NCBI GenBank assembly: GCA_902781465.1
Contig: CACZJK010000001.1
Span: 142,831-206,830, forward strand
Reading direction: 5' to 3'
DNA length: 64,000 nt
DNA from: an uncultured Pseudomonadota bacterium
GTDB taxonomy: Bacteria; Pseudomonadota; Alphaproteobacteria; Rs-D84
Shown: positions 8,991 to 22,948 of the stretch, piece after piece
How the letters are laid out: each line of letters begins with the position of its first letter
Numbering within the stretch: position 1 is the first letter of the stretch
Translations under genes and position numbers: made by a program
Notes under the pieces: generated by a model
What the model saw: only the letters and a program-made list of their open reading frames with translations
What the model was told of the DNA's origin: nothing
The model's database searches: none

Positions 8991-9065
8991 GGCGGCGTAG
9001 CTCAGTGGTAGAGCAGAGGAATCATAATCCTTTGGTCAGGGGTCCGAATCCCTTCGCCGCTACCA
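8991..9065 (+). tRNA. tRNA with CAU anticodon (elongator Met or lysidine-modified Ile2; arm sequences resemble E. coli ileX)
   Basis: Cloverleaf folded by hand: acceptor GGCGGCG/CGCCGCT, D arm GCTC-AGTGGTA-GAGC, anticodon loop ATCATAA (CAT), T loop TCCGAAT, encoded CCA. Confidence 0.85.
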
Positions 9066-9208
9066 AAATAATAAACGACCCTTGTGGTCGTTTTTTATTT
9101 TGATATCTGGGATTTGGACACCGATCCCGGGGTCCGACAACAAGTAGATTTTGGAAGCGGTAGCGCACCAAAATCGTCACGGTTGCCCCGCAGGCATTTA
9201 TGCCGAGG

Positions 9209-9225
9209 GAATCCCTTCGCCGCTA
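9209..9225 (+). repeat. Direct repeat of the tRNA-CAU 3' end (GAATCCCTTCGCCGCTA; tRNA copy at 9046-9062), preceded by a second copy of the T-stem fragment GGGGTCCGA at about 9129; att-like scar or decayed partial tRNA duplicate
   Basis: Exact 17-bp match read directly; the intervening approximately 146 bp contain a terminator hairpin (GACCCTTGTGGTC) and a tRNA-like fragment GGTAGCGCA. Confidence 0.6.
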
Positions 9226-9289
9226 TTTATAAAAATTCCTTTCTTTTTAATAAATATGGTGCAATATTTACTTGGGCGAGGTATAAAAA

Positions 9290-10132
9290 ATGAAAAATAT
9301 TTTAATTACTGGTGCAAATGGTCAATTGGGGTCAGAATTGGCAAGGATTATGCCATCGGCTGTTTTGACGGGACACAATGTTTTAGATATTACTGATAAG
9401 GTTGCTGTTGATAAATTTATAAAATCAAGAAAGATAGATACTGTTATAAATTGTGCTGCTTATACTGCGGTTGATTTAGCAGAAGATAACTATGATGATG
9501 CGTATAAAATAAATGCAATTGGACCAAGAAATTTAGCACAAACAGGATGCAAAATAATTCATATATCAACAGACTATGTTTTTTCTGGAAATGCGAAAGT
9601 CCCATATAAAACAACAGATAAAACAAATCCTTTGTCTGTGTATGGTTCTACTAAATTGGCCGGGGAAAAAGCGATTTTAGAAAATTCTGAAAACGGTATA
9701 ATAATCAGAACTTCTTGGCTATATTCTGAATTTGGAAAGAATTTTGTTAAAACTATGCGCAATCTTGGTGCAAGCAGAAGTGATATTTCGGTTGTTGCGG
9801 ATCAATACGGTTTGCCAACTTATGCGGCGAATTTAGCCTTTGCTATTTTTCAAATTATCCCACAAATAAAGCCGGATAATTCAGGTATATATCATTATTC
9901 AAACTCTGGTTCAGGAATTTCTTGGTATAATTTTGCAGATGAAATAATGAAACAATCTGGTTTGAACTGTGTTGTAAAACCTATAACCACAGATCAGTAT
10001 CCAACACGTGCAGTGCGCCCAAAGTACAGCGTAATGAATACTTCTAAAATACAGAAAACTTTTGGTGTAAAGATACCAATGTGGCAAGACGCGCTGAAAC
10101 ATTGTATCAAAGAATTGGAAAAACAGCATTAA
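9290..10132 (+). CDS. rfbD: dTDP-4-dehydrorhamnose reductase-like (RmlD family) NAD(P)-dependent reductase
   Basis: N-terminal ILITGANGQLGSEL Rossmann motif and overall RmlD length (280 aa); no rmlABC nearby, so the exact substrate is uncertain. Confidence 0.65.
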   Translation: MKNILITGANGQLGSELARIMPSAVLTGHNVLDITDKVAVDKFIKSRKIDTVINCAAYTAVDLAEDNYDDAYKINAIGPRNLAQTGCKIIHISTDYVFSGNAKVPYKTTDKTNPLSVYGSTKLAGEKAILENSENGIIIRTSWLYSEFGKNFVKTMRNLGASRSDISVVADQYGLPTYAANLAFAIFQIIPQIKPDNSGIYHYSNSGSGISWYNFADEIMKQSGLNCVVKPITTDQYPTRAVRPKYSVMNTSKIQKTFGVKIPMWQDALKHCIKELEKQH

Positions 10133-10176
10133 ATATATTGAAAAAAAGTGCTTTTTATGATATAATATAAACCAGT

Positions 10177-10222
10177 TCGACGGGGGATGCCGTCGATTTT
10201 TTTTATGCCGGGTTTTCCCGGC
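10177..10222 (+). terminator. Tandem terminator hairpins (CGACGGGGGATGCCGTCG then GCCGGGTTTTCCCGGC), each followed by a T-run
   Basis: Read directly downstream of the rmlD-like gene. Confidence 0.5.
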
Positions 10223-10249
10223 TTTTTTGTTATAACAAAAGGATAAATA

Positions 10250-11164
10250 ATGAATAAATTTATATTTTCTGGAAATGGTAAAAATAAAGATTTTTATTTT
10301 ACTTTTCCTTTCTTTTCAAATGCTGATATTGTTGTAAAAATCAACAATGATTTAGCGACCGGATATGGTGTTTTCTGTATTCCTGGTACAGGCAATAATG
10401 ATTTTCCTTTTACAGGTGGCCATATTCATTTTGCAACCGCACCAAAGACAACTGATGTCATAACCATAGAACGCAAATTGCAATTAAACCGCCTGATAGA
10501 TTATCAACCAACAGCGCCTCTTAATTCAACAACAGTTAATCAAGATATGAATTATTTCTTTGAATTGCTGAAAGATGTAAAAAGTGAATTGCTGGGTTTT
10601 GCAGAAACTTATAAAGAATTCACAGATACAGAAAGTGCGCAAGAATTGTTGGCGCGCATAGATGCTGTTATCGAAGAAATAGATAATCTTGGCGATATAT
10701 CAACGATAACAAGCAGTATATCAGAACTGGGCTCGTCGATAACAAGTTTGACTAATTCTTTGAACAGTTTGACAAGCACAGTCGGTGCGCATACGACAGA
10801 TATTGTGGCGCTTAGCGCTTTCAAAGACGGGGTTCTTGATTATGTGGTTGAATCGCAAGAACCAACCGCAGAAAACAATTATACCTGGTATCGAAAATAC
10901 AAATCTGGCTGGGTCGAACAAGGAGGTCAGATAACAAACAATAATGGTACTGAAAGAACTATATCTTTACCAATAACTATGACAAATACGAACTACACAT
11001 ATAACGATTGCTTTGAAACAATTATTCGCGAAGGCGGAAGCCCATGGCGAATAGTCGACACACCAAATGTATTAACAAACAAAACAACGACATCTTTTAC
11101 AAGATATATGCCAGATTGCGCAACAATAATACGTTGGAGTGTCTATGGCATTGCAAGCAATTAA
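10250..11164 (+). CDS. Phage tail-fibre-like protein with a T7 gp17-type N-terminal tail-attachment domain, a coiled-coil/Ser-Thr-rich shaft and a C-terminal globular tip
   Basis: N-terminus FSGNGKNKDFYFTFPFFSNADIVVKINN...DVITIERKLQLNRLIDYQP parallels T7 gp17 (DGSNRDFNIPFEYLARKFVVV...TTIELRRVTSTTDRLVDF); middle SSISELGSSITSLTNSLNSLTS repeats; followed by a hairpin terminator at 11165-11195. Confidence 0.55.
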   Translation: MNKFIFSGNGKNKDFYFTFPFFSNADIVVKINNDLATGYGVFCIPGTGNNDFPFTGGHIHFATAPKTTDVITIERKLQLNRLIDYQPTAPLNSTTVNQDMNYFFELLKDVKSELLGFAETYKEFTDTESAQELLARIDAVIEEIDNLGDISTITSSISELGSSITSLTNSLNSLTSTVGAHTTDIVALSAFKDGVLDYVVESQEPTAENNYTWYRKYKSGWVEQGGQITNNNGTERTISLPITMTNTNYTYNDCFETIIREGGSPWRIVDTPNVLTNKTTTSFTRYMPDCATIIRWSVYGIASN

Positions 11165-11177
11165 AAAACGGTTGTTT

Positions 11178-12254
11178 TTACAACCGTTTTTTTCTGTTTT
11201 GTATTTTGTATTTTATCATTGCACCACCATACCAAAAACAAGAAATTATATCTGCAATATAATGTCTTATTTTTTTTAATCTACAAAACGGACGTACTAC
11301 AATCTTATAATGATTTGCAAAATGTTCTTTTAAGTTTTCAAAATATTCACCATTATAATAATCTTTATAAGATTCGTCACAATATCTTTTATAATCTTTT
11401 ACAAAAGTTGGATATAAATATATGCCATGAATCCAATCATCTGCAGCAAGATAATCTTTGTTTTTAGAAAGTTTTTTATATGTTTTTTTCTGAATATATA
11501 CACCAATTTCATTAAACCCAACCGATATAACATTATTAGCTAATAATATATGCGATAATTGAACTTTATCTAATGTATAATCTAATTGGTCTTTCATCTT
11601 GCATTCAGGAAAATAGCGAGAAAAGAAATTCATTCCAACCCATTGTTCTGGCGGAAATTTCCAAGTTGCACCTTTATCGAGTATTTTGAAACCTGTATTT
11701 TTTTCATAAAACAACGAAAAATCAGGTTCATTTGTCAACGGACAGTCATAATAATCTTTTACATCTTCAGTTAACCCAAAACACAACCAATCACTTAAAT
11801 CAAAAGGTCTATCAATAACAAATTTTGGAGATAACGTTTCTTGATAACGAGAAAATATACTATAAAATAAAACACGCTCTTTAAATATTGAATATTTTTT
11901 ATCCCGTTTTGGAAATTGTTTTGCAATATCATTTAATATTTTTGAATTTGTAAATATTAAATCGGAACGCATACGAATAACATATTTTGTTTTAACCGCA
12001 CCTAAACCAGCCTTGGAAGTCACCAAAATACGGTTGGTCATATTGCTTAAAGTTTTTGTTATTTTTGTTGCGCCAGGATCATCAGATTCAACCAAAACAT
12101 CATAATCAAGTCCATCAACATTATGATTTTTATATGTTGAAAATATAATAGTTGCCCCAGGCAAATATTTACGGATGCTTTTTATACATCTTTTTGTCTG
12201 ATGTTTTATGTTTATCCCTTGAACAACAACAGATATATCTTTTGGATTTATCAT
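11178..12254 (-). CDS. Putative LPS/polysaccharide biosynthesis protein (WavE-like family)
   Basis: N-terminal ISVVVQGINIKHQTKRCIKSIRKYLPGATIIFSTY resembles the WavE family start; Y/W-rich and AT-biased like the surrounding glycan genes. Family call is tentative. Confidence 0.35.
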   Translation of the reverse strand: MINPKDISVVVQGINIKHQTKRCIKSIRKYLPGATIIFSTYKNHNVDGLDYDVLVESDDPGATKITKTLSNMTNRILVTSKAGLGAVKTKYVIRMRSDLIFTNSKILNDIAKQFPKRDKKYSIFKERVLFYSIFSRYQETLSPKFVIDRPFDLSDWLCFGLTEDVKDYYDCPLTNEPDFSLFYEKNTGFKILDKGATWKFPPEQWVGMNFFSRYFPECKMKDQLDYTLDKVQLSHILLANNVISVGFNEIGVYIQKKTYKKLSKNKDYLAADDWIHGIYLYPTFVKDYKRYCDESYKDYYNGEYFENLKEHFANHYKIVVRPFCRLKKIRHYIADIISCFWYGGAMIKYKIQNRKKRL

Positions 12255-12979
12255 TTATAATCCTTTTTATTAAAATAATATGTATTATTTCTATCCCAAA
12301 TAAAATTACCAGATTTTAAAACTTTTGCTGGTTGTCCACAGAATATATATGGTTTTTTACTGTTTTTTGGATTTGATGCAGACGTATACAATGTTCTCGC
12401 TCCCAAAATTGAACCATCTGGAATATTCGCACCTTTTAATATTAAACATTGTGTACCAACCCAAACATGATTTCCTATCATTATATTCTTTGGTTTATTA
12501 ATGGCATCACCTTTGTCATCTATTATCGCATGTCCATCCGAAGGCCATATTGTTATATCAAAAGACAACATACAATCCTTGCCTATTTTTACAATTCTTT
12601 CTGGTTCATCATGTAACCATATTTTTGCACCTTCAACAGAACAATCAGAATCTATAAGCAACTTGCTGTATCTTGACATTCTAGCAGGTATGATTAAATC
12701 TTTTATATAAAAGTTAGTTTGTTTTATTTCTATAATATTATCATCACCTACTTCAAAATAACAATTGATAAATCTATAAGGTTCATGTATTTTTACAACA
12801 CTATTTTGCCCCAAAAATTTAATTGTTAATCCTTTGACTTTTTTTATTTCTTTTATTTTGCCATCTTTTTTAACAATTAATATTTTGTTGTTCTTTATTC
12901 TGGACAACATGTCAAAATATTTACATGTTTTACCAAAAGTTAAATGCTTTAATAATCTATATAAATTATTACGCGACAT
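12251..12979 (-). CDS. Hexapeptide-repeat (left-handed beta-helix) O-acetyl/acyltransferase
   Basis: Hexapeptide repeats IGNHVWVGTQCLILKGANIPDGSILGARTL; typical WbbJ/NeuD-like size. Confidence 0.6.
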   Translation of the reverse strand: MSRNNLYRLLKHLTFGKTCKYFDMLSRIKNNKILIVKKDGKIKEIKKVKGLTIKFLGQNSVVKIHEPYRFINCYFEVGDDNIIEIKQTNFYIKDLIIPARMSRYSKLLIDSDCSVEGAKIWLHDEPERIVKIGKDCMLSFDITIWPSDGHAIIDDKGDAINKPKNIMIGNHVWVGTQCLILKGANIPDGSILGARTLYTSASNPKNSKKPYIFCGQPAKVLKSGNFIWDRNNTYYFNKKDYK

Positions 12980-12982
12980 AAC

Positions 12983-13990
12983 CTAGCCTTTGTAATTTTT
13001 TTGATATTCAATAATTTCTTTTAATCCGTCCAATAAATCTGTTTTTGCAACATAGTCAAATTCAGCACGGACTTTGTCGCCATTACCAAGGCAATGTTTA
13101 AATACTTCTTGTTTTACGCGTTCTTTTTTCAAGTTATAACGCGCATTAAACAATTCTTCGTATTTATCCCAAAACTTTAATGGTTCACCTGTATCATATT
13201 CTAATTCTTTACCCAACGCAGCATAGATTGTTTGAGCTATTTCCATTGCAGAATATGCTTTACCGGTTGCCAAATTGAAAATATCTGCATGATATTCTTT
13301 GTCTGACATTGCCATACGATACAAATATTGCATCAAATCATAAACATAGATATAATCGCGTTTACAATCTTCTGTGTTATAAATTGTTGGTTTACGTCCC
13401 GCCAATGCTTCACGAATCAAGAAAGATGTAAATGGTGGATATTTACGTTTAAAATCTTGGTGTGGACCAAACACGTTAAAGAAACGACATATTACAATAT
13501 CCATACCATAATTTTGTGCAAATGATTTACAAATTTGTTCTGAACAATATTTAGTTGTTGCATAAACTAAATTTGGGTGAACTTCATCTGTTTCTTTGTG
13601 AACTTCATCAGATGGATTGTTTTCATAAATTGCAGATGTTGATGCGAATATAACACGTTTTACATTGCTGCGACGAACCGCATTTAATACATTAGCAGTT
13701 GCAGCCGTATTCACATCAAACGCTTTATATGGATGTGATTCACATTCTGGTAACGCAGAAATCCCAGCAAAATGATAAACAATATCAATTCCTTCTAAAT
13801 ATTTACCAAAATCAGGGTCACGAACATCTGCCATGATAAAGTTTTGTTTTAACGTTTCATTATCTTCAAAATTATCACGATAACCATATTCCAAATTATC
13901 CAACAATTTTACATTATGTCCTTGAGATAATAAAAATTTTCCCAATTCAGAACCTATGAAACCTGCACCACCTGTGATAAGAATATTCAT
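12983..13990 (-). CDS. NAD-dependent nucleotide-sugar epimerase/dehydratase (extended SDR)
   Basis: MNILITGGAGFIGSELGKFL Rossmann motif; YxxxK region; 335 aa. Confidence 0.75.
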   Translation of the reverse strand: MNILITGGAGFIGSELGKFLLSQGHNVKLLDNLEYGYRDNFEDNETLKQNFIMADVRDPDFGKYLEGIDIVYHFAGISALPECESHPYKAFDVNTAATANVLNAVRRSNVKRVIFASTSAIYENNPSDEVHKETDEVHPNLVYATTKYCSEQICKSFAQNYGMDIVICRFFNVFGPHQDFKRKYPPFTSFLIREALAGRKPTIYNTEDCKRDYIYVYDLMQYLYRMAMSDKEYHADIFNLATGKAYSAMEIAQTIYAALGKELEYDTGEPLKFWDKYEELFNARYNLKKERVKQEVFKHCLGNGDKVRAEFDYVAKTDLLDGLKEIIEYQKNYKG

Positions 13991-14005
13991 GTTTTTCCCT
14001 TTTGT

Positions 14006-15064
14006 TTAATCTATGTAATCTTTGATTGACGAATTACGCGGTAATGTGATTGCAATGCCAGAAGGATATGGATTTGTTGGTGCAAAATCATTTATAACTA
14101 CACGTGCCGCGTGATTCATTCCCATTAAAATTGCATATGGTTTTATGCCAACTTCATTTAACATTTTTTGAAGGTTTTCACGAAATTCTTCGCCACGTGA
14201 AGTTGTTATAACTATTTGTGCGCCGTTATCCTGTAATTGTTTTAATGTTTCCACATTGTCTTCCAACATGGTTGTATTGTTATACCAATTTATTTTTCCA
14301 TATTTGCCAGAATTTTTCATTATAACACCATCAACATCTACAAAATATGTGCGGTGTTGTTTTTGAACTTTTTTCCATTCAGTTAATGTTCCCCAATCAT
14401 CATAAGAATCTGCATAAACCGCCTCAAAAACATAATTATCAGATGATAACATATACGAAATTACGTGTGATATATACATTTCGCCAGAAATTTGGTGGCT
14501 TTGCATTTCTTCGTATGCTTTTACAAAATCGTTTGCGTTTTCAAAACAATATACCCCCAAACAAATTACATTTGATACAACCTGTTTTTCGATAATGTCT
14601 TGGATAACACCTTGTTCATTTACTATCAAGAAACTTTTCCCTGGGATATTTGTGACGTCACGATGTTTATGCAAATCATACCCAACAATCATATTTTTTA
14701 TTTGTTTATCAAAATGAACACCAACACGATTATCTGAATCTTTGATAACAAAAGAACCTTCGACATTCATTTTCTTTAGTGTTAAATATATTGTTTCGCT
14801 GGCGCTTGAAGTAAAATCGTCCAATAAACAAATTTCTACCTTTGGATTGTTTTCAAAGACTTGATGCATAATAAGGTTTGCTTCGTATTTATCGTCGTGT
14901 GGTTTTACGATTGTAATTATGATACGGTCAAAAACGTCAATATTGATGTTTTCCATAGCCTTTTCAATCATTAATTTTCCATCTGGATGAGTAAGCATAT
15001 ATTTGGGTTTCATATTTGGGAAACGACTTGATTTTCCAGCACATGGAATTATAAGGGTATTCAT
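14006..15064 (-). CDS. Bifunctional sugar-phosphate/phospho-alcohol nucleotidyl(cytidylyl)transferase (LicC/IspD-like N-domain) fused to a HAD-family phosphatase domain
   Basis: N-terminus LIIPCAGKSSRFPNMKPKYML (nucleotidyltransferase G-loop); C-terminal YFVDVDGVI...TTSRGEEF (HAD motifs I-III). Confidence 0.55.
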   Translation of the reverse strand: MNTLIIPCAGKSSRFPNMKPKYMLTHPDGKLMIEKAMENINIDVFDRIIITIVKPHDDKYEANLIMHQVFENNPKVEICLLDDFTSSASETIYLTLKKMNVEGSFVIKDSDNRVGVHFDKQIKNMIVGYDLHKHRDVTNIPGKSFLIVNEQGVIQDIIEKQVVSNVICLGVYCFENANDFVKAYEEMQSHQISGEMYISHVISYMLSSDNYVFEAVYADSYDDWGTLTEWKKVQKQHRTYFVDVDGVIMKNSGKYGKINWYNNTTMLEDNVETLKQLQDNGAQIVITTSRGEEFRENLQKMLNEVGIKPYAILMGMNHAARVVINDFAPTNPYPSGIAITLPRNSSIKDYID

Positions 15065-15924
15065 TATTTATTCTCCTTATTATCTAAAATGTTATTCAAT
15101 TTCGTGATTGCGTTATGTAAAAATGTCCGTGTAGTATCATCTTTTGCGTATGGGACAATTCGCATAACATTTAAAAGCAAGATGTAATAAATCTGTAAAA
15201 CTTTTTTATTACCATCCGGTAATTCAGAAATGTATTTAATTAAGCCATCGCGCGCGACCGCCAATCTTAATTCAAGATTTGACGATATTTCTTCATGACG
15301 ATAAGACCATTGTAATTCAAGATCTTGTAATAGTTTTGCCACATCTATCATCCAAGAATCGAAAAATGAATCTAAAAAGTCTATTAAATAAATATTGCCT
15401 TTGACGTCTAATAATATGTTTTCTAAAGTTAAATCACCGTGACATTTAGAATACGGAATTTCAGAAAAATTAAAACCTTCCAATCTTTTTAGTGCGTTTA
15501 TATAAATGTCTTCGGTTGGAATATTGTTATAAAGCGATTTAATTTTCTTTTGAAAAATTTCATTTGTTTCTGGCATAACAACACTATCATCAATGTGTAA
15601 TTCATTAACAACCCATTCAACAAATGCAGGTATTTCTTTGATTGATACTGTTTCCATATACTTCGCCATTGTACAGCAATTCAAATATTCCATATCAAAA
15701 TAAAAAATACCATCTTGGATACCTGTTTTATAAATTTGCGGAACACGAATATTTGAATTTTTCGATGATTTATAACCAACTTGTTTTGCGATTTGTATTC
15801 GTAATCTTTTGTTATAATCTGGACGCCCCGCTGTTTTACGGACGAAGAAAAGATCATTTTCGCGGAACAGTGAAATTTCACATCCACTGTGTCCCGATAA
15901 ATTTTTTATAAATTGTTCTGACAT
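15064..15924 (-). CDS. Choline/aminoglycoside-kinase-family small-molecule kinase (LicA-like)
   Basis: Brenner motif HGDLTLENILLD and DFLDSF metal-binding motif of the APH/ChoK fold; stop/start is coupled with the cytidylyltransferase gene. Confidence 0.55.
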   Translation of the reverse strand: MSEQFIKNLSGHSGCEISLFRENDLFFVRKTAGRPDYNKRLRIQIAKQVGYKSSKNSNIRVPQIYKTGIQDGIFYFDMEYLNCCTMAKYMETVSIKEIPAFVEWVVNELHIDDSVVMPETNEIFQKKIKSLYNNIPTEDIYINALKRLEGFNFSEIPYSKCHGDLTLENILLDVKGNIYLIDFLDSFFDSWMIDVAKLLQDLELQWSYRHEEISSNLELRLAVARDGLIKYISELPDGNKKVLQIYYILLLNVMRIVPYAKDDTTRTFLHNAITKLNNILDNKENK

Positions 15925-15946
15925 TATTTTTTCCTAAAATATTCAA

Positions 15947-16834
15947 TTAATCAAATTTTCCAATTGAAAAGACAAAACTAAACCAGTTAAACAAATTGAT
16001 ATCTATGTTCGTTATTGGCGGTAAAATACGCAATAAGTGAATAAAGATACCTTTTTTCCTTAAATGGAAACTTATTATGTTTGAACGGTTTAATTTTATT
16101 TGTGCAAAGCGTTTAATCTTGAAAGATTTTATATATTGATACGAACCAAGATATACTGGACGTAAATTATGTGATAAAATATTATCTATTAAAAAACCTT
16201 CGGCATGATAATCTATGTTATCTCCTTTTTTTGCAGGCACTTTTAATTTGTCGCAAAGTTTTGATATTGCTTTTGCACCACCAAAAAATAATAAATCGAC
16301 AGTTTCAACATAATTTAATCCATACATATCACGATCTGGGGTGTGTCCTGCCAGATATATATTTGTCCCATCTTGATTAAATTTATCGTTTATGTATTTT
16401 TCAATCTTCAAATCTTCTAACAACACAACATCAGGTCTTATACAAACAACCATATCGTATTTAATCTTGTGTTTTTTTTGGTAATCTTCGCGTAATTTAT
16501 TAACTGTTTTAATAGAATGATATACAGACATTAAACCTTGAAGAGCGAATTCGTATCCGTGGACTATAATTTTATCGTCAGTATATAATTTTTGATGTTC
16601 GATTTTGATTTGTTCTGGCAAAATACCGAGTTTTTGTATTATTTGTTCTTGATTAACTTTCTTATTTACATTTTTGAAATTATTATGCCAAGTCTTTGAA
16701 TTATGGTTGTATGTATCCCATGTATGCATAAAAATATCGCACTCATAGCGATTTAATAAGTGTCTTTTTATTGACGGCAGGCATTTTTCAAATGTCCTTA
16801 AATGACCAAAAAATTGAACCGCTATGCGTGGCAT
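15947..16834 (-). CDS. Hypothetical protein, possible sugar transferase; first gene of the minus-strand glycan operon
   Basis: 295-aa ORF immediately outside IR-L of the invertible segment; no firm motif. Confidence 0.45.
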   Translation of the reverse strand: MPRIAVQFFGHLRTFEKCLPSIKRHLLNRYECDIFMHTWDTYNHNSKTWHNNFKNVNKKVNQEQIIQKLGILPEQIKIEHQKLYTDDKIIVHGYEFALQGLMSVYHSIKTVNKLREDYQKKHKIKYDMVVCIRPDVVLLEDLKIEKYINDKFNQDGTNIYLAGHTPDRDMYGLNYVETVDLLFFGGAKAISKLCDKLKVPAKKGDNIDYHAEGFLIDNILSHNLRPVYLGSYQYIKSFKIKRFAQIKLNRSNIISFHLRKKGIFIHLLRILPPITNIDINLFNWFSFVFSIGKFD

Positions 16835-16860
16835 AAAAAACTCTTTTTTTCTATAAAAAC

Positions 16861-16881
16861 CAATCGGTCGTTTGATGTTTA
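16861..16881. repeat. IR-L: CAATCGGTCGTTTGATGTTTA, left arm of a 21-bp perfect inverted repeat (hix/gix-like recombination site)
   Basis: Exact reverse complement of 17577-17597; contains the imperfect palindrome ATCAAACGACCGATTGAT, whose half-site ATCAAAcgACC resembles the Hin/Gin half-site ATCAAAAACC. Confidence 0.8.
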
Positions 16882-17489
16882 CAGGTTTTGACTGTGCAAA
16901 AATGCGTAAAGTGTTGGTGGGGAAATTTTGAATTTTCTGGCTATTTTGGTCTTTGGCATGTCTTTGGCATACCTTGTTTTATCATATTTATTATTTTGTT
17001 TTCGTTGCCATCGATTTTATGATGCGTGTTTTTACTGCCAAAACGCCGCCCAAGAATCACACCTGCTTCGCGACGGCGCGCCAAGGCTTCACGTGTGCGC
17101 AGACTGATTAAATCTCGTTCTATTTCTGCGGAAATTCCAAACGCAAAAGCCAATACTTTCGATTGAATATTGTCACCCAATTCATAGCCGTCTTTGACGG
17201 TATAAACATAAGCCCCACATTTCATACAATGTTCCAAAATTCGCATAATCATAAATAATTTTCGGCCCAGGCGCGATAATTCAGAACAGATAATAATGTC
17301 GCCGGTTTTCAGTTTTTTCAAAATTCCACCAAGTGCACGATTATTTGGTTCGACTGTCCCAGAAATTCCAGAATCCATAATATATTTATCTATTGTTATT
17401 CCCATAGATTTGGCCTTGGTTATAATTCCTGTTTTCTGGTTTTCACAGTCTTGTTTATCTGTGCTGACGCGAATATATCCGTATATCAT
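16879..17489 (-). pseudogene. Hin/Gin/Cin-family small serine DNA invertase, frameshifted by an 11-bp tandem duplication; the present ORF (16941-17489) lacks the C-terminal HTH
   Basis: N-terminus MIYGYIRVSTDKQ (catalytic Ser) and resolvase core. The + strand shows GTCTTTGGCAT twice in tandem (16949-16959, 16960-16970). Removing one copy restores ...GMPKTKIARKFKISPPTLYAFLHSQNL* with a Hin-type HTH and a stop at 16879-16881 inside IR-L. Confidence 0.7.
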
Positions 17490-17543
17490 TTTGTTTTCCT
17501 TTTTTTGTGTTGTTATATCCAAATAGGAAAACAAACAAACGCT

Positions 17544-17572
17544 TGATATTAAAGAAACTTATTTGTATAGTA
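17544..17572 (+). promoter_or_regulatory. Near-consensus sigma70 promoter TTGATA-17-TATAGT inside the invertible segment, reading outward across IR-R into the + glycosyltransferase operon
   Basis: TTGATA 17544-17549, 17-nt spacer, TATAGT 17567-17572; RBS AAGGA then ATG at 17623. Confidence 0.55.
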
Positions 17573-17576
17573 TTCA

Positions 17577-17597
17577 TAAACATCAAACGACCGATTG
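17577..17597. repeat. IR-R: reverse complement of IR-L (AAACATCAAACGACCGATTG plus flanking base)
   Basis: Exact 21-bp inverted match to 16861-16881. Confidence 0.8.
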
Positions 17598-17622
17598 ATT
17601 TTAATAAAATAAGGATTTTTAT

Positions 17623-18702
17623 ATGGCAAAAAAGATTTTCGTTTCTTTGAAAAAATTTTCTATTAATTTTGTGGGGTTAAGGTTTAAAAGACATCATATT
17701 AAAAATAATACTATTTTATTACTGGAAACTAATGTTTGTCATGGTGAAGTTATGTCGGGTTATATCGAATACTTCAAAAGATTGGGATATAATATAGATT
17801 GCGTTTTACATACAGATTTTTTACAAGATAATCCTTTTTCAAGACATGATATGTCAAAAATAAACTGTTTTTATTTAAATAAAATTTGTATGAAAAGATT
17901 TATAAAATACAAAAATATTCGTAAATATAAACATGTTGTTATTATGTCTAGTACTTATTATGGAGATTTTGGTTGGGAAGGCGTGATTGATTTTGCGCCT
18001 GAATTAAAACGCCACCCTTCTGTTTATCTTGTCGAACACGAATTGAATTGTATCGAACCGCAAAACGAACAAGAATACCTTGATAAAAATCATATAATAG
18101 TTCTTGGTAAGTTTGATCGTGGTGTTTTTGTGAACCCGCATTTGTTTGGTAATGTAAAAATTACCAAAAAGAACAAAATTCCAACTTTTATAAGTGTTGG
18201 TGGAATTATGGCATTCAGGAAAAATCATGCCGAATTGATTTCTGCAATACAGGAATTGGTTAAACAAAAACAGAAGTTTAAAGTGGTTGTTATTGGGCGT
18301 GGAAAATTAAATGATTTGCCAGATGAAATCAAACCTTATATTGAAATTACAGGGCGTTTAAATTTTCCAGAAATGTTTGAACAAATGGAAAAAGCAGACT
18401 TTTTCCTGCCTTTACTTGATCCAAATAATCCAGACCATGAACGCTATATTACAACCGGTGTGACAGGTTCTGCTCAATTGATATACGGTTTTGAAAAGGT
18501 GCCTGTGATACAAAAAAAGTTTGCAAAGTTTTATCGTTTCAACAATAAAAACGCGATAGTTTTTGAAAAAAGTTTGGCAACCGCCATGTCAAAAGCCATT
18601 TCTTTATCAGGACAAGAATACAATACTTTGCAATCAAATTTACACAAAACCGCACAAGAAATTCAAAAAGAAAGCTTTGATAATTTGAAAAGGATATTTT
18701 AA
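17623..18702 (+). CDS. Hypothetical protein, possible GT-B-fold glycosyltransferase; first gene of the + glycan operon
   Basis: C-terminal KVVVIGRGKLNDLP...EITGRLNFPEMFEQMEKADFFLPL resembles the C-domain of GT4-like enzymes; weak. Confidence 0.4.
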   Translation: MAKKIFVSLKKFSINFVGLRFKRHHIKNNTILLLETNVCHGEVMSGYIEYFKRLGYNIDCVLHTDFLQDNPFSRHDMSKINCFYLNKICMKRFIKYKNIRKYKHVVIMSSTYYGDFGWEGVIDFAPELKRHPSVYLVEHELNCIEPQNEQEYLDKNHIIVLGKFDRGVFVNPHLFGNVKITKKNKIPTFISVGGIMAFRKNHAELISAIQELVKQKQKFKVVVIGRGKLNDLPDEIKPYIEITGRLNFPEMFEQMEKADFFLPLLDPNNPDHERYITTGVTGSAQLIYGFEKVPVIQKKFAKFYRFNNKNAIVFEKSLATAMSKAISLSGQEYNTLQSNLHKTAQEIQKESFDNLKRIF

Positions 18703-19658
18703 TGAAAATATCAATTGTTGCACCGATTTATAACACTGGAAAATTCTTACCAGAGTGTATTGATAGTGTATTAAATCAAACTTTCCAAGATTGGGAATTG
18801 ATTCTGGTGAATGATGGATCACCAGATAACAGCGAAGAAATTTGTAAAAAATATATAAAGAAAGATAAAAGAATACGGTATTTTTATCAAAAAAATTCTG
18901 GTGTTTCTGTGGCGCGCAATTTAGGTATATCAAAGGCAAAAGGTGAATATGTTTTTTGTATGGATTCTGACGATACTTTGGATTCCAGATTTATTGAAAC
19001 TTCTTATGATGTCGCAATTAAAAATGATTCTGATATAGTCGTTATTGGTGATTGGTTTGCATGTCGTTTGCCACGGCCCGCAGCACTGCCAACTTGTGCA
19101 ATGTTATTGCGTAAAAGTTTTTTAGATAACCACAAAAATATTCGTTACCCCATTGGAATACAACCATGTGAAGATGGTCTTTTTTCACATCAATTATTGG
19201 CATTGACTGATAAAATCGCTTTTAATCCAATGGGAATATATAATTATCGTGAACACGAAAACGGAAACCATATTGCAATAAATAAATCATGTGAAAAAGT
19301 GTTAAAGCAAATTCCACAATGGTTTGAAATATTGGAAAAGTTTTATGATAAATATGATCTTTGGGATAAACATGGTTCGCATCTTTTGAAATTTATAGAA
19401 CACGAACCTTTTGATTTCAGATTTAGATCGATGCCATTTTCTTCAGATCAAAAAGAATTTTTATTTAAAATAATACACGATTTTATGAATAAACATAATT
19501 TAAGAAAGTATAGAAATAGAAAATTGTCAAAGCGATTTAGATTGTTTTTGTTAGCTTCTTCTTATATAAAATATGAAAAATATATATGCATATATAATTC
19601 TATAGTCAAATTTTTACATACATTTAAACAGCGCAGACCAGAAAAGGATAACACATGA
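18702..19658 (+). CDS. Glycosyltransferase family 2
   Basis: ISIVAPIYNTGKFLPECIDSVLNQTF...ILVNDGSPD...MDSDD (GT-A DXD). Confidence 0.85.
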   Translation: MKISIVAPIYNTGKFLPECIDSVLNQTFQDWELILVNDGSPDNSEEICKKYIKKDKRIRYFYQKNSGVSVARNLGISKAKGEYVFCMDSDDTLDSRFIETSYDVAIKNDSDIVVIGDWFACRLPRPAALPTCAMLLRKSFLDNHKNIRYPIGIQPCEDGLFSHQLLALTDKIAFNPMGIYNYREHENGNHIAINKSCEKVLKQIPQWFEILEKFYDKYDLWDKHGSHLLKFIEHEPFDFRFRSMPFSSDQKEFLFKIIHDFMNKHNLRKYRNRKLSKRFRLFLLASSYIKYEKYICIYNSIVKFLHTFKQRRPEKDNT

Positions 19659-20815
19659 AACTGTTGTTAGTTGTAAATTCGTCTCTTATTAATTCTACCG
19701 GTGGTGTTGAGCACGTTTTGTGTGATATGGCAAATGAAATGGAAAAACGTGGTTTTGATGTTCATATTGCAACAATGGAAAACAAAGAAGGAAAGCCTTT
19801 TTTCTATTTAAATAAAAATATAAGTTTTAAGAATTTGTACCCAGAATTGAGCAATAAAAATAAATTTATAAAAAAATTGATATCGCTATTTTTGAAGATA
19901 GCAGGCAAAAATAATTATAGGGATTTTTATTTCAAATCTTTAGTTTATCAAAAATATATACATTCTATTCAACCAGATTTAATAATAGCTTTTTCTTTGC
20001 CGACATTATTGGAGATGACATATACGAATAAAGGAAAATGTCCAATTATATTGACTGTTCATGGAAACCCAGTTAATGATTATACAGATAGGTTTTGGTC
20101 AAGGCCAACTTATATGAATAAATTATTTAGAAAAACTTATAAAAATGCAGATGTTATACAGGTCCTTTTGGATAGTTATAAATCTTTTGTTCCAAAAGAA
20201 TATAAGGGTGAAGTAATAACAATTGGAAATATAGCACCTTTTGTCTCAAAAGAACCGTTGTCATTAGATAAACAAAAAATTACAAGTATTGGACGACTTT
20301 GTTTGGAAAAACATCAAGATTTATTAATAAAGGCTTTTGCTAAAATCAGTGATAAATTTCCAAATTGGTCTTTGGATATATATGGTGAAGGTTATTTAAG
20401 AGAAGAATATCAAAGCCTGATTGATAAATTAAAAATGACAAAAAAGATTCATTTAAAAGGTACTAGCAAGAAAACGAAAGAAATTTTAATAAATTCTTCC
20501 TTATTTGTTTTACCGTCACATGTTGAAGGGTTCCCTTTGGTGTTAGCAGAAGCAATGGGAGTAGGGTTGCCTTGTATTGGATTGCAAGATTGTGATGGGA
20601 CAAATGAAATTATAAAACATAAAGAAACAGGTTTTTTGGTTGCTGATGATGAAAATGATTTGGCAAAAGCGATGAGTTTGTTGATGTATGATTCTAAATT
20701 AAGACAAAAATATGGAAAAAACAGCCAACATGAAATGTTGCAATATTCATCTAATATAATTTGGGATAAATGGGAAGATTTAATTAAAAAAACAATCAAC
20801 GAAAAGAGAAAATAA
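19655..20815 (+). CDS. Glycosyltransferase family 4 (GT-B)
   Basis: C-terminal EGFPLVLAEAMGVGLPCIG motif; overlaps the upstream gene by 4 nt. Confidence 0.85.
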   Translation: MKLLLVVNSSLINSTGGVEHVLCDMANEMEKRGFDVHIATMENKEGKPFFYLNKNISFKNLYPELSNKNKFIKKLISLFLKIAGKNNYRDFYFKSLVYQKYIHSIQPDLIIAFSLPTLLEMTYTNKGKCPIILTVHGNPVNDYTDRFWSRPTYMNKLFRKTYKNADVIQVLLDSYKSFVPKEYKGEVITIGNIAPFVSKEPLSLDKQKITSIGRLCLEKHQDLLIKAFAKISDKFPNWSLDIYGEGYLREEYQSLIDKLKMTKKIHLKGTSKKTKEILINSSLFVLPSHVEGFPLVLAEAMGVGLPCIGLQDCDGTNEIIKHKETGFLVADDENDLAKAMSLLMYDSKLRQKYGKNSQHEMLQYSSNIIWDKWEDLIKKTINEKRK

Positions 20816-20816
20816 T

Positions 20817-21695
20817 ATGAAAAAGAATTTACCGGTTTGTAATCTTAGTGTAAAAGCTGGGTTGGGAAATAGGATAAAAGGATTGTTTTCTTTTATTCGT
20901 CAATATCAACCAAAAGAAATGATTTTAATTTGGCCTAAAACTCTTGTCAAAAAATCTTTTTTAGAATTATTTTGCTTTGATTATCCTGTAAAAATTTATG
21001 AAAAAGATATTCCAAATTATAATATCCCTGAACAGTCTTGGCGTTTTTATGTGTCAGAATCCGACAATATTTCAAAAAACTTTTCAAAAATTCCATTAGA
21101 TTTTAATGACCCTGTTTTTGATTTGGAATACAATAGAACACCAAAAAGAATGGTAAAAGTATATTCGCAATATTTTCAAAAATTAAAACCAAACGCAAAT
21201 ATTCAAAAAATTATTAATTCTGTTATATTGCCAAAAAATACAGTTGCTTTGCATGTTCGAAACCATTCTGATTGGAAAGATGGTGGTAGAAATACAAATT
21301 TGAAAGAATTTACCAAATGTATGGATAAATATTCTAAGGATACTTTTTTCTTTTTATCTGCTCATGATAAAGATATATCTGATTATTTTAAGAAAAAATA
21401 TAAAATAATAGAAGTTCCAAATAAAAATTATTCATCAATAGAATATGCGATTGCTGATTTATATTTATTATCAAAATGTAAAGAAGCAATTTATTCTTGT
21501 GGTTCTACTTTTTCAGAAATCTCTTGGTGGATTGGCGGGTGCAAGGCCAAAGCGCATGTTATAGGCTCTTATGATGATTGGGTTGAAGTAAATAAAAGAA
21601 TTAAATTTTTCAGAATAGAAAAAACTGAAAATCGTACAAGATTTTACTTTTTTGGTAAAAAAATATTATCGATAAAAAGACCTACTAAAAAATAG
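20817..21695 (+). CDS. Putative fucosyltransferase-like glycosyltransferase (GT11-like motifs)
   Basis: HVRNHSDW (compare GT11 HxRRGDY) and C-terminal CGSTFSEISWWIG (compare GT11 SNSTFSWWAA). Confidence 0.4.
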   Translation: MKKNLPVCNLSVKAGLGNRIKGLFSFIRQYQPKEMILIWPKTLVKKSFLELFCFDYPVKIYEKDIPNYNIPEQSWRFYVSESDNISKNFSKIPLDFNDPVFDLEYNRTPKRMVKVYSQYFQKLKPNANIQKIINSVILPKNTVALHVRNHSDWKDGGRNTNLKEFTKCMDKYSKDTFFFLSAHDKDISDYFKKKYKIIEVPNKNYSSIEYAIADLYLLSKCKEAIYSCGSTFSEISWWIGGCKAKAHVIGSYDDWVEVNKRIKFFRIEKTENRTRFYFFGKKILSIKRPTKK

Positions 21696-21707
21696 CAGGT
21701 CTAATAT

Positions 21708-22013
21708 TCATGCCTTTGGATATTTTGATTTTATCTCGGCAATTTTTTCTTGCCATTTGTTTGTGTTGTTAACTTTATCCCAATATATCATATCCAGTTG
21801 TTCTGAAATGCTTGGATATTCATTTTGCCTTTTTTCAACGTAAGTTTTTTCTGGTTCAATTGGTGCATAACCTTTGACATACAAAAGTCCATCATATCCG
21901 GTTTCTGTTTCGCCTGTATAAACTTCCATGCCCCATTTTTTTACTCGTTCTTGATTGTTTTTTGTATCAAGCCATTCATTTAATATAAAACTATTTTTTT
22001 CTTTGACTAACAT
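21708..22013 (-). CDS. Small phage-associated protein (about 101 aa), probable tail-fibre assembly/chaperone-type partner; start MLVKEKNS overlaps the upstream stop (TAATG)
   Basis: TAATG stop/start overlap with the tail-fibre-like gene; acidic, W/Y-rich. The six-frame ORF extends further to 22088, inside the upstream gene. Confidence 0.4.
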   Translation of the reverse strand: MLVKEKNSFILNEWLDTKNNQERVKKWGMEVYTGETETGYDGLLYVKGYAPIEPEKTYVEKRQNEYPSISEQLDMIYWDKVNNTNKWQEKIAEIKSKYPKA

Positions 22014-22540
22014 TATAAACTCCCTTTTAACGGAAAAATTTTTAAAGATCTGTCCACGTTGCGACCGCCAACCATTTTCCAATACCACCCTTTTGGAACA
22101 TAAAATTCACCAGAAATTTTAAAAGAACCAGAGCCTGCATTTGATTCACGTAATGTTGTAAAAGTATTGCCATCAGAAGACACACATGGGGCAACATTAG
22201 GATTTCCATCAATGTGATTAGTCTGATAATTAACAACACAATCATAATCTGCTAAATATGTTGTGTCCCAATTCTTACTGACAGGTGCAGAATAATCTGG
22301 CGTTGATAGGTTAGATATAACTTTTTTACCTGTTGTGCTTATGTTATCCATATCTGTATTGGCTTTTGATGTGACGGTTGGTATTTCGCTTTGTTTGGCC
22401 AATTTTATGCCGCCTGCGGTTTCACCATCGTGAACACGTAATGTTTTATTTGTTGTGTCCATGGTGACTTCGCCAATTGCGCCGGTAAAGGCATCATTTT
22501 CCGTCGCTGTTCCGCGACGAATTTGTATTTGTCTTGACAT
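22013..22540 (-). CDS. Small phage tail-fibre-like protein carrying the HylP/tail-fibre N-terminal motif
   Basis: IQIRRGTATENDAFTGAIGEVTMDTTNKTLRVHDGETAGGIKLA matches the conserved N-terminal block of phage hyaluronidase/tail-fibre proteins (…RxxxAxW…L..GE.G.ETDT..lK.GDG). Confidence 0.5.
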   Translation of the reverse strand: MSRQIQIRRGTATENDAFTGAIGEVTMDTTNKTLRVHDGETAGGIKLAKQSEIPTVTSKANTDMDNISTTGKKVISNLSTPDYSAPVSKNWDTTYLADYDCVVNYQTNHIDGNPNVAPCVSSDGNTFTTLRESNAGSGSFKISGEFYVPKGWYWKMVGGRNVDRSLKIFPLKGSL

Positions 22541-22674
22541 TAAATTACTCCATTTTTATATAAAAAAGGCCGGCATTTGCCGGCAATTAAACAAATAAAA
22601 ACGACGGTTTTGCCCCATCGAATTGCTTTTATTATATCATAATTTCAATAAAAAATCAATGTTTTGCTTTTTAT

Positions 22675-22702
22675 TTGATTTTTTGCGATTCATGGGTATA
22701 AT
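22675..22702 (+). promoter_or_regulatory. Sigma70-like promoter TTGATT-16-TATAAT for tRNA-Thr
   Basis: TTGATT 22675-22680; TATAAT 22697-22702; tRNA starts at 22714. Confidence 0.5.
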
Positions 22703-22713
22703 ATCTGGCGATT

Positions 22714-22787
22714 GCCCTAATAGTCTAGTGGTAAAACACGTCCTTGGTAAGGACGAGTCGCAAGTCCGATTCTTGCTTAGGGCACCA
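22714..22787 (+). tRNA. tRNA-Thr (GGU)
   Basis: Acceptor GCCCTAA/TTAGGGC; anticodon stem CGTCC/GGACG with loop TTGGTAA; T arm GCAAG-TCCGATT-CTTGC; encoded CCA. Confidence 0.85.
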
Positions 22788-22948
22788 GGTTTTTTCAAAT
22801 ATGTTGATGCGACTGACAACCGCGGAGTGTTTGTGAAATCTTAAAAGTAAGAAAAGCAGGGTGGCACCGCGCGAAAAAATCTTAGCGCCCCTGTGATTTA
22901 AGATTTGAATTGGTGCCGTATCCAAAAATTTTATTACGACACCGAAAT

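Follow-up and report, generated by a model that had tools for sequence, protein, structure and literature searches.

For gut bacteria exposed to phages and to host immunity, phase variation of surface glycans is a central means of coping, and the paradigm for their control is Mpi of Bacteroides, each target region of which spans around 170–200 bp and places a single locus under ON/OFF control. At the sap locus of Campylobacter fetus, inversion of a segment carries its one outward promoter from one surface-structure gene to another that faces it, giving reciprocal expression; this switch uses RecA and the homologous sap 5′ regions, its segment is far larger, and it is not known to have a serine invertase of its own. 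In Bacteroides fragilis, a single serine recombinase, Mpi/FinA, flips 13 regions, and seven of these are capsular-polysaccharide promoters (PMC4747536, PMC3090145); its gene is not part of the target regions, and the recombinase works in trans on these 13 short promoter regions (PMC4747536). Broad surveys of invertons have been published (PMC11602134). Here we analyse a 737-bp segment, positions 16861–17597 of a 64,000-nt stretch of DNA that as a whole we call the window, from an uncultured alphaproteobacterium of the lineage Rs-D84 (assembly GCA_902781465.1, contig CACZJK010000001.1), and compare it with these switches. Candidatus Enterousia belongs to the order Rs-D84, the members of which have genomes of ~0.7–1 Mb and lack both the tricarboxylic acid cycle and respiration (PMC12306168). 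A literature search found no paper on this cassette or on phase variation in Rs-D84/Enterousia, in agreement with a preliminary description of this DNA, which knew of no account of such a switch at this kind of locus; the general class, invertible promoters, is known, and the arrangement and the lineage are new.

We think it likely, from the comparisons set out below, that the segment at 16861–17597 is a self-contained invertible cassette consisting of two hix-like sites, an Mpi-family invertase gene and an outward promoter, P_out. Its features are as follows.

16861–16881, no strand: IR-L, the left 21-bp perfect inverted repeat, holding a predicted crossover site with its centre, GT, at 16867–16868 (repeat and dyad search).
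16879–17489, minus strand: gene for a predicted small serine DNA invertase of the Mpi family, a pseudogene in the window, with its ATG at 17489 (Pfam and NCBIfam matches).
16949–16970, no strand: an 11-bp tandem duplication (GTCTTTGGCAT twice), placing a frameshift just before the recognition part of the C-terminal helix-turn-helix (HTH) (sequence comparison).
17490–17576, no strand: the 5′ control region; its plus strand carries P_out, and its minus strand the ribosome-binding site of the invertase gene together with a weak candidate promoter for that gene.
17543–17571, plus strand: P_out, an outward sigma-70-type promoter motif, TTGATA-17-TATAGT, pointing towards the plus-strand glycosyltransferase (GT) operon (motif scan and alignment of seven cassettes).
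17577–17597, no strand: IR-R, the right 21-bp perfect inverted repeat, holding a predicted crossover site with its centre, AC, at 17590–17591 (repeat and dyad search).

The perfect 21-bp repeat reads CAATCGGTCGTTTGATGTTTA at 16861–16881 and recurs as its reverse complement at 17577–17597, with 737 bp between the outer edges, exactly where the preliminary description had placed both arms. Even with three mismatches allowed, only these 2 copies are found in 64 kb, compared with an expected 0.01, which puts the repeats far beyond chance; they extend imperfectly to 36 nt at 89% identity. Each arm also contains the palindrome that had been proposed, in the form of a dyad-symmetric site: ATCAAACG-AC-CGATTGAT at 17582–17599 in the right arm and ACCAATCG-GT-CGTTTGAT at 16859–16876 in the left arm, where it has one mismatch. 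Both palindromes reach 2 nt past the perfect repeat. Their central dinucleotide is non-palindromic and stands in opposite orientation in the two arms, as AC on the right and GT on the left. Non-palindromic central dinucleotides in opposite orientation are what inversion by a serine recombinase needs, by established chemistry, and the same chemistry would put the crossover at the central AC/GT. The core pattern CAAWCG-NN-CGWTTG has no further copy in the window besides these two sites.

The evidence that this segment inverts comes, in the first place, from relatives that carry it the other way round. L092, a Logan contig with an 89% identical invertase, has the same cassette between divergent glycan operons, with 28-nt inverted repeats 705 nt apart and a perfect dyad, CAAACG-AC-CGTTTG. 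When the window is aligned to L092 by blastn, flank A together with IR-L (16827–16881) and the first GT gene (17704–18719, whose L092 orthologue is 65% identical as a protein) match in the forward direction, and the segment at 16854–17628 matches in reverse; by this alignment, the cassette is flipped between flanks that have stayed collinear. A second pair shows the same relationship at closer range: L003 (RUG14344) is 95% identical to L092 across the cassette, and the same GT2 flank meets the 3′ end of the invertase gene in L003 and its 5′ end in L092. Relatives with the module in the opposite orientation, which the preliminary description had named as a check on its proposal, are therefore present in two pairings.

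The places at which contigs break also carry information on orientation. If both orientations are present in a sample, the flank unitig of a de Bruijn assembly ends exactly at the inner edge of the repeat for any k, whereas for a multicopy repeat it runs k − 1 bases into the cassette, and the break shifts with k. Three contigs of the window's species, L100 (scaffold), L102 (k87) and L108 (Logan), all begin exactly at the equivalent of 17577, the inner edge of IR-R (the assembler k-mer sizes were taken in part from contig names). L002, a 760-bp contig from the same sample as L100, begins exactly at 16861, the outer edge of IR-L; L109, a 762-bp contig with an 81% identical invertase, has a perfect inverted repeat of ~36 nt at both ends; and the L003 and L093 contigs also end at the repeat. 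One further contig, L105, has its first base 1 nt inside IR-L; this base is A, as expected for the flipped state, at a position at which the window has G, and it is weak evidence in the same direction. The breaks in same-species contigs from samples that hold the intact invertase allele indicate, as far as assemblies can, ongoing inversion.

A promoter segment also appears inverted elsewhere in the family. Beside an invertase homologue of 70% identity, a 93-bp segment carrying TTGATT-17-TACAAT lies directly after the invertase gene and is inverted between the orthologous Ca. Enterousia loci L012 and L019 (10594–10686 in both), the flanks of which are 91% identical; the wider invertase family would thus invert promoters too. 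That segment stands upstream of an operon encoding a 227-aa protein, an Eco57I-type N6 DNA methylase and a ResIII/T5orf172 helicase, which looks like a phase-variable restriction-modification or defence operon. For the cassette itself, promoter-segment inversion upstream of surface-polysaccharide loci is found on evidence that is comparative throughout, and the core idea of the preliminary description, an invertible segment with its own invertase and an outward promoter between divergent glycan operons, is supported by the flipped relatives and by the contig breaks at repeat edges.

Within the segment, the invertase gene fills almost the whole length, and P_out sits in the 87-bp region upstream of it, ending 5 nt inside IR-R. 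In an alignment of seven cassettes (76–92% protein identity; mean DNA column identity of 68%), the TTGA of the −35 element and the T.TA of the −10 element are invariant in 7/7, and the 17-nt spacing is kept in all seven, with no indel between the hexamers and indels between the −10 element and the repeat. The CGGTC core of the crossover site is invariant in the same seven. A strict sigma-70 match to P_out is found in the window, L093 and L094; towards the invertase gene, none of the six cassettes scanned has one. Conservation of the motif suggests that P_out is an active promoter. The motif and its outward direction thus hold up from the preliminary description, with two amendments: the positions given there, 17544–17572, were off by one, and the motif taken alone is not unusual.

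The invertase gene is broken in the window. Its disrupted frame matches PF00239 (Resolvase; E = 2e-30) and stops at 16941–16943 after 182 aa; the premature stop follows GMPKTCQRPK, and the other frame carries on with KIARKFKISPPTLYAFLHSQNL to a stop of its own. The cause is the 11-bp tandem duplication. Removing one copy gives a 199-aa protein, the TAA stop of which is the inner 3 nt of IR-L, and this repaired protein matches both PF00239 (E = 3e-30) and the HTH_7 domain (E = 1e-7), so that the frameshift and the C-terminal HTH regained on repair, both anticipated in the preliminary description, are confirmed. It has the build of a small serine recombinase, with an N-terminal catalytic domain bearing the nucleophilic serine and a C-terminal HTH, and it keeps all of the family-invariant residues (R7, S9, SRLGRK and the AEIER motif).

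A database protein, P0001, matches the repaired protein at 100% identity; its gene occupies this locus on L001, a metagenome contig of 310 kb, and over 16780–17675 the absence of the duplication from L001 is the sole difference between that contig and the window. The duplication is absent from four same-species assemblies (L001, L002, L104 and L106; 98.5–100% identical), and the intact allele is held by samples such as ERR3224611/SAMEA5383933, DRR855086 and SRR27787428. From this distribution, the frameshift would be either a lesion that arose recently and is confined to this assembly or else an error of assembly; sister genomes keep an intact invertase gene and appear to switch. As the frameshift removes the DNA-binding HTH, the cassette in this genome is probably phase-locked, P_out facing operon B, unless it is served in trans by a second invertase; the 64-kb window holds no paralogue of the gene.

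By family, the repaired protein belongs to or adjoins the Mpi recombinases on the sequence criteria used here, and it is not Hin/Gin-like. NF009949 ('master DNA invertase Mpi family serine-type recombinase') aligns residues 1–197 of 199 with model positions 1–196 of 203, scoring 259 bits (E = 2.8e-77) against an equivalog cut-off of 272 bits, and the second-best NCBIfam model reaches 34 bits. Identity is 47–54% to plasmid-encoded proteins of Treponema, Prevotella, Parabacteroides, Lactococcus and Campylobacter that are annotated as Mpi family, 52% to a Bacteroides phage invertase and 32% to a phage 'hin' (E = 6e-7). In a comparison with proteins of solved structure, Gin scores 49 bits and gamma-delta resolvase 52 bits, so the protein shows no particular closeness to Hin/Gin over other serine recombinases. 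The term 'Hin-type', used in the preliminary description, consequently fits the layout of the cassette and not its protein.

The operons on either side, which we call A and B, begin almost at the repeats.

11178–16834, minus strand: glycan/lipopolysaccharide (LPS) operon A, with genes for DUF7796, an APH/choline-kinase-like protein, a cytidylyltransferase-HAD protein, an NAD-dependent epimerase, a hexapeptide-repeat acyltransferase-like protein and WavE (Pfam).
16835–16860, minus strand: the 26-nt leader from IR-L to the DUF7796 ATG at 16834 (flank A), with the motif TTTCTATAAAAA beside the site.
17598–17622, plus strand: the 25-nt leader from IR-R to the ATG of the first GT gene at 17623 (flank B), with a ribosome-binding site.
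17623–21695, plus strand: glycan operon B, with GT1_4-like, GT2 and GT4/GT1 genes and a gene of 292 aa (Pfam).

With leaders of only 25 and 26 nt, there is no room for promoters belonging to the operons themselves, and transcription of each has to begin in the segment or traverse it. The minus-strand operon does start right outside IR-L, as the preliminary description had it, with its ATG 26 nt away and no promoter room in between; of the four glycosyltransferase genes assigned to the plus-strand operon, three have GT domains and the fourth, the 292-aa gene, has no Pfam match. The Pfam matches in operon A are weak for the APH/choline-kinase-like protein, the IspD-like cytidylyltransferase fused to HAD and the hexapeptide-repeat protein. 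Judged by these domains alone, the products of the operons would be LPS or other surface glycans. The motif TTTCTATAAAAA beside the site in flank A is also kept in L092, L003 and L094.

In the window, the first GT gene (17623–18702) carries an in-frame 84-bp deletion at 17668–17676, removing 28 aa near the N terminus and leaving 359 rather than 387 aa; the deletion is absent from L001, L100, L102 and L108 (387 aa) and from the L092 orthologue. A start codon upstream, inside the segment, was considered as the source of the difference between 387 and 359 aa, and is ruled out by this internal deletion. The whole glycan locus, at ~9000–22800, is a low-GC island (28–32% versus 35–40% around it, in a window of ~36% GC) bracketed by tRNA-Met (8991–9065) and tRNA-Thr (22714–22787); the bracketing and the low GC suggest a hot-spot for horizontal exchange. 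In several lineages, the glycan locus is bordered by a gene for a protein of 149–175 aa with an Mtd_N domain (PF18454, found at the N terminus of the major tropism determinant), at 22013–22540 on the minus strand of the window, 4866–5393 in L001, 14337–14798 in L092 and 45–494 in L097.

The same architecture is found in five further lineages (76–92% identity), always at the heads of glycan operons. One of these cassettes, L097, has an operon on the P_out side only, so that ON/OFF control would be the switch in its simple form, on which the toggle between two operons elaborates. More widely, when one genome per species was scanned, 80 loci with 63–89% identity to the invertase came up; uncultured Alphaproteobacteria of the gut or rumen account for nearly all of them, and many carry the label Candidatus Enterousia; the repeat-flanked layout was found at only one of these 80 GTDB loci, L003. 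No flanking inverted repeat was detected at relatives of ≤75% identity, using exact seeds and a sensitive ungapped search with a shuffled control, and among the 78 distant homologues L004–L082 none was seen in the 72 that could be tested. The layout with the invertase inside its own segment is therefore specific to this clade. Across the family, conservation of the catalytic domain itself is ~70%, and matches in the database number more than 8000 proteins. Several Rs-D84 metagenome-assembled genomes (MAGs) of <1 Mb encode 2–3 paralogous Mpi-like invertases (for example, CAMWON01, JAAVBP01, CAZJGX01 and SUUQ01), which may amount to a multi-switch 'phasome' in reduced genomes. A Pasteurellaceae origin, at which the LicA/WavE character of the genes had hinted, was rejected: uptake signal sequences were looked for and none is present in the window, and the relatives are gut Alphaproteobacteria.

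Two relatives show further repeats around the cassette. At 725–800 of L003, the crossover site and adjacent flank are duplicated in tandem (~38 bp), leaving two sites on one side of the cassette; this could be an assembly artefact. A B. fragilis switch is known in which inverted repeats are duplicated at one end of an invertible promoter (PMC3090145, PMC4747536). In L094, the homologous 5′ ends of divergent GT2 genes (9710–9865 and 10697–10849) form long imperfect inverted repeats, of 39 nt at 74% and 112 nt at 76%, and the first codons of these genes, MPR(V/I)(S/A)V, together with their leader, are common to the flank-A genes of the window, L092 and L093.

We infer a switch that would work as follows. 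A tetramer of intact invertase would bring the two sites into synapsis, cleave both at the AC/GT centre and rotate, flipping the segment; depending on orientation, one operon would then be served by P_out, and the other only by read-through from the invertase gene with its weak promoter. As the segment lies in the window, P_out would feed operon B through a leader of ~44 nt, and the invertase gene would read into operon A; after inversion, P_out would feed operon A through a leader of ~45 nt. Leaders and ribosome-binding sites would stay with the operons, and the invertase stop codon with the segment. The flipped junction would be expected to read flank A-IR-TGAATACTATAC. A scan of Joint Genome Institute (JGI) metagenome contigs for a flipped junction, using the repeat pattern AAWCGGTCGTTTGATGTTTR, returned 9 matches, all of them chance matches with no recombinase nearby.

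How completely such a switch would silence the operon without P_out depends on what happens behind the invertase gene. The 44 nt from the invertase stop to the next ATG fold no better than shuffled sequence (z-scores of 0.24 and 1.39) and form no stable hairpin, and a terminator made of the palindromic site and a T-run was rejected on the same comparison with shuffled sequence. With no terminator in between, the switch need not be strictly reciprocal: an operon that loses the strong promoter may be left with weak read-through, short of a full OFF state. Inversion, one half of the reciprocal ON/OFF switch put forward in the preliminary description, is thus supported, and the strict reciprocity that made up the other half is not.

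Several observations weigh against our interpretation. The invertase of this very genome is frameshifted, and the GT deletion is a second assembly-specific lesion beside the switch, so the system may be decaying here. The NF009949 score falls 13 bits short of the NCBIfam cut-off. P_out alone is not statistically distinctive, with 11 promoter-like sites compared with 8.5 expected in this AT-rich region, and L092, L003 and L097 have weaker versions in place of a strict sigma-70 match. The invertase gene leaves the segment without a terminator, and the 'off' operon may still be transcribed. L100, L102 and L108 perhaps come from the same or related rumen samples, in which case they are independent as assemblers and not as biological samples. 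Finally, in contigs of the window's species the flipped junction was never seen over more than one base.

These points leave room for three other explanations. The first is that the segment inverts without reciprocal ON/OFF control, both operons being on in both orientations and the flip changing their ratio or mainly regulating the invertase. The stop codon inside IR-L, followed by only 44 nt without a stable hairpin before the next ATG, is what this would look like, and the one-sided L097 shows that the two-operon toggle is not universal in the clade. We nevertheless regard it as unlikely: the absence of a strict sigma-70 match towards the invertase in 6/6 cassettes makes read-through probably weak, the core of the outward promoter is conserved, and if orientation did not matter, it would be hard to see why both operons still start only 25–26 nt from the sites. 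The second explanation, that the segment is a decaying relic in which the invertase is dead, the first GT damaged and the promoter region fixed and bidirectional, draws on the 11-bp duplication and the 84-bp in-frame deletion, both specific to this assembly. As an account of the cassette in general it seems to us improbable, because the repeats are still perfect, the four same-species assemblies have an intact invertase and the contig breaks in those samples indicate ongoing inversion; it applies at most to this one genome, where it is compatible with the phase-locked reading.

The contig breaks themselves could have another origin if the segment were a small mobile serine-recombinase cassette resembling an insertion sequence (IS), with the repeats as element ends and the breaks due to multiple copies. 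The invertase family is indeed very large, with ~70% conservation across many MAGs and 2–3 paralogues in several genomes; many invertase matches lie on contigs of ~0.7–1.1 kb; and the flanking genes vary by lineage, with DUF7796 in one and GT2 in others. Set against this, the flank contigs begin at the inner repeat edge regardless of k, whereas a multicopy repeat would give k-dependent breaks, and the cassette occupies the same position, at glycan operon heads with a conserved leader, in six lineages. The protein, moreover, is of the ~200-aa invertase/resolvase type with a C-terminal HTH and not of the transposase type, and the distant homologues that could be tested have no flanking inverted repeat to serve as ends. 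The preliminary description would have given way had the repeats been the ends of a common IS element, but the 64 kb contain just two copies of the repeat and of its core site, with no second invertase gene, and the metagenome scan with the repeat sequence gave chance matches alone. A mobile multicopy element is therefore very unlikely, and an invertible promoter cassette accounts better for where the contigs break.

Returning to that cassette, we lean, by a little, towards the broader proposition that a clade within Rs-D84, related to Ca. Enterousia and with genomes of <1 Mb, has turned an Mpi-family invertase into a 'toggle cassette', in which one promoter alternates between divergent LPS/glycan operons. 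If this is true, cells would display mutually exclusive surface glycotypes, in the first phase-variation system described for the lineage; an Mpi-type switch would exist outside Bacteroidales with a Hin-like, two-sided architecture; and the module would possibly be portable, to be placed before different glycan gene sets. The host lineage, Alphaproteobacteria of gut and rumen that have reduced genomes and of which none is in culture, has barely been studied, and because orientation ratios can be read from existing metagenomes, the cassette would offer a handle on its surface variation and possible phage evasion. As a device, it would be a compact, ~740-bp genetic toggle with two outputs, of which the 11-bp duplication provides a natural 'locked' allele. 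Cassettes of this kind also call for caution in the assembly of MAGs, as they systematically break contigs.

Among described systems, Mpi is the closest in protein, the recombinase belonging to the same family or to its immediate neighbour, and also in setting: in both, a serine invertase would flip a repeat-bounded promoter at the head of a surface-polysaccharide operon in a gut bacterium. The arrangement differs. Here the same recombinase family would work from inside its own ~740-bp segment, with one promoter for two divergent operons, in an alphaproteobacterial host with relatives in Rs-D84 and not in Bacteroidales; and a single pair of sites is visible (2 sites in 64 kb), with the gene between them, rather than many dispersed sites served in trans by a gene outside them; further trans targets may lie elsewhere in the genome. 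ARACGTWCGT, which we take to be the B. fragilis Mpi repeat consensus, was not found as a string in the literature and is not used as evidence.

In layout, the nearest counterpart is the Salmonella H segment (hin, hixL/hixR and the fljBA promoter), which likewise holds both an invertase gene and an outward promoter. The crossover sites resemble hix in their dyad symmetry, ATCAAA-type half-site and non-palindromic central dinucleotide, and they share with the Hin/Gin/Cin/Pin sites in general an inverted orientation and a 2-bp non-palindromic centre; the recombinase, like Hin, is a small serine recombinase with a C-terminal HTH. It differs from Hin in sequence (~32% identity to a phage Hin), and the cassette promoter diverges from the invertase gene instead of lying downstream of it. 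The statement in the preliminary description that the layout is that of the H segment is therefore right as to the invertase and promoter inside, and has to be qualified for the divergent promoter and for the operons, which stand on both sides instead of one. The phage and prophage invertases Gin, Cin and Pin are also small serine invertases acting on inverted dyad sites; theirs lie beside the segment and switch tail-fibre coding sequences, not promoters, and Gin scores only 49 bits. The shuttling of one promoter between opposed genes has its parallel in C. fetus sap, which reaches it by a different mechanism.

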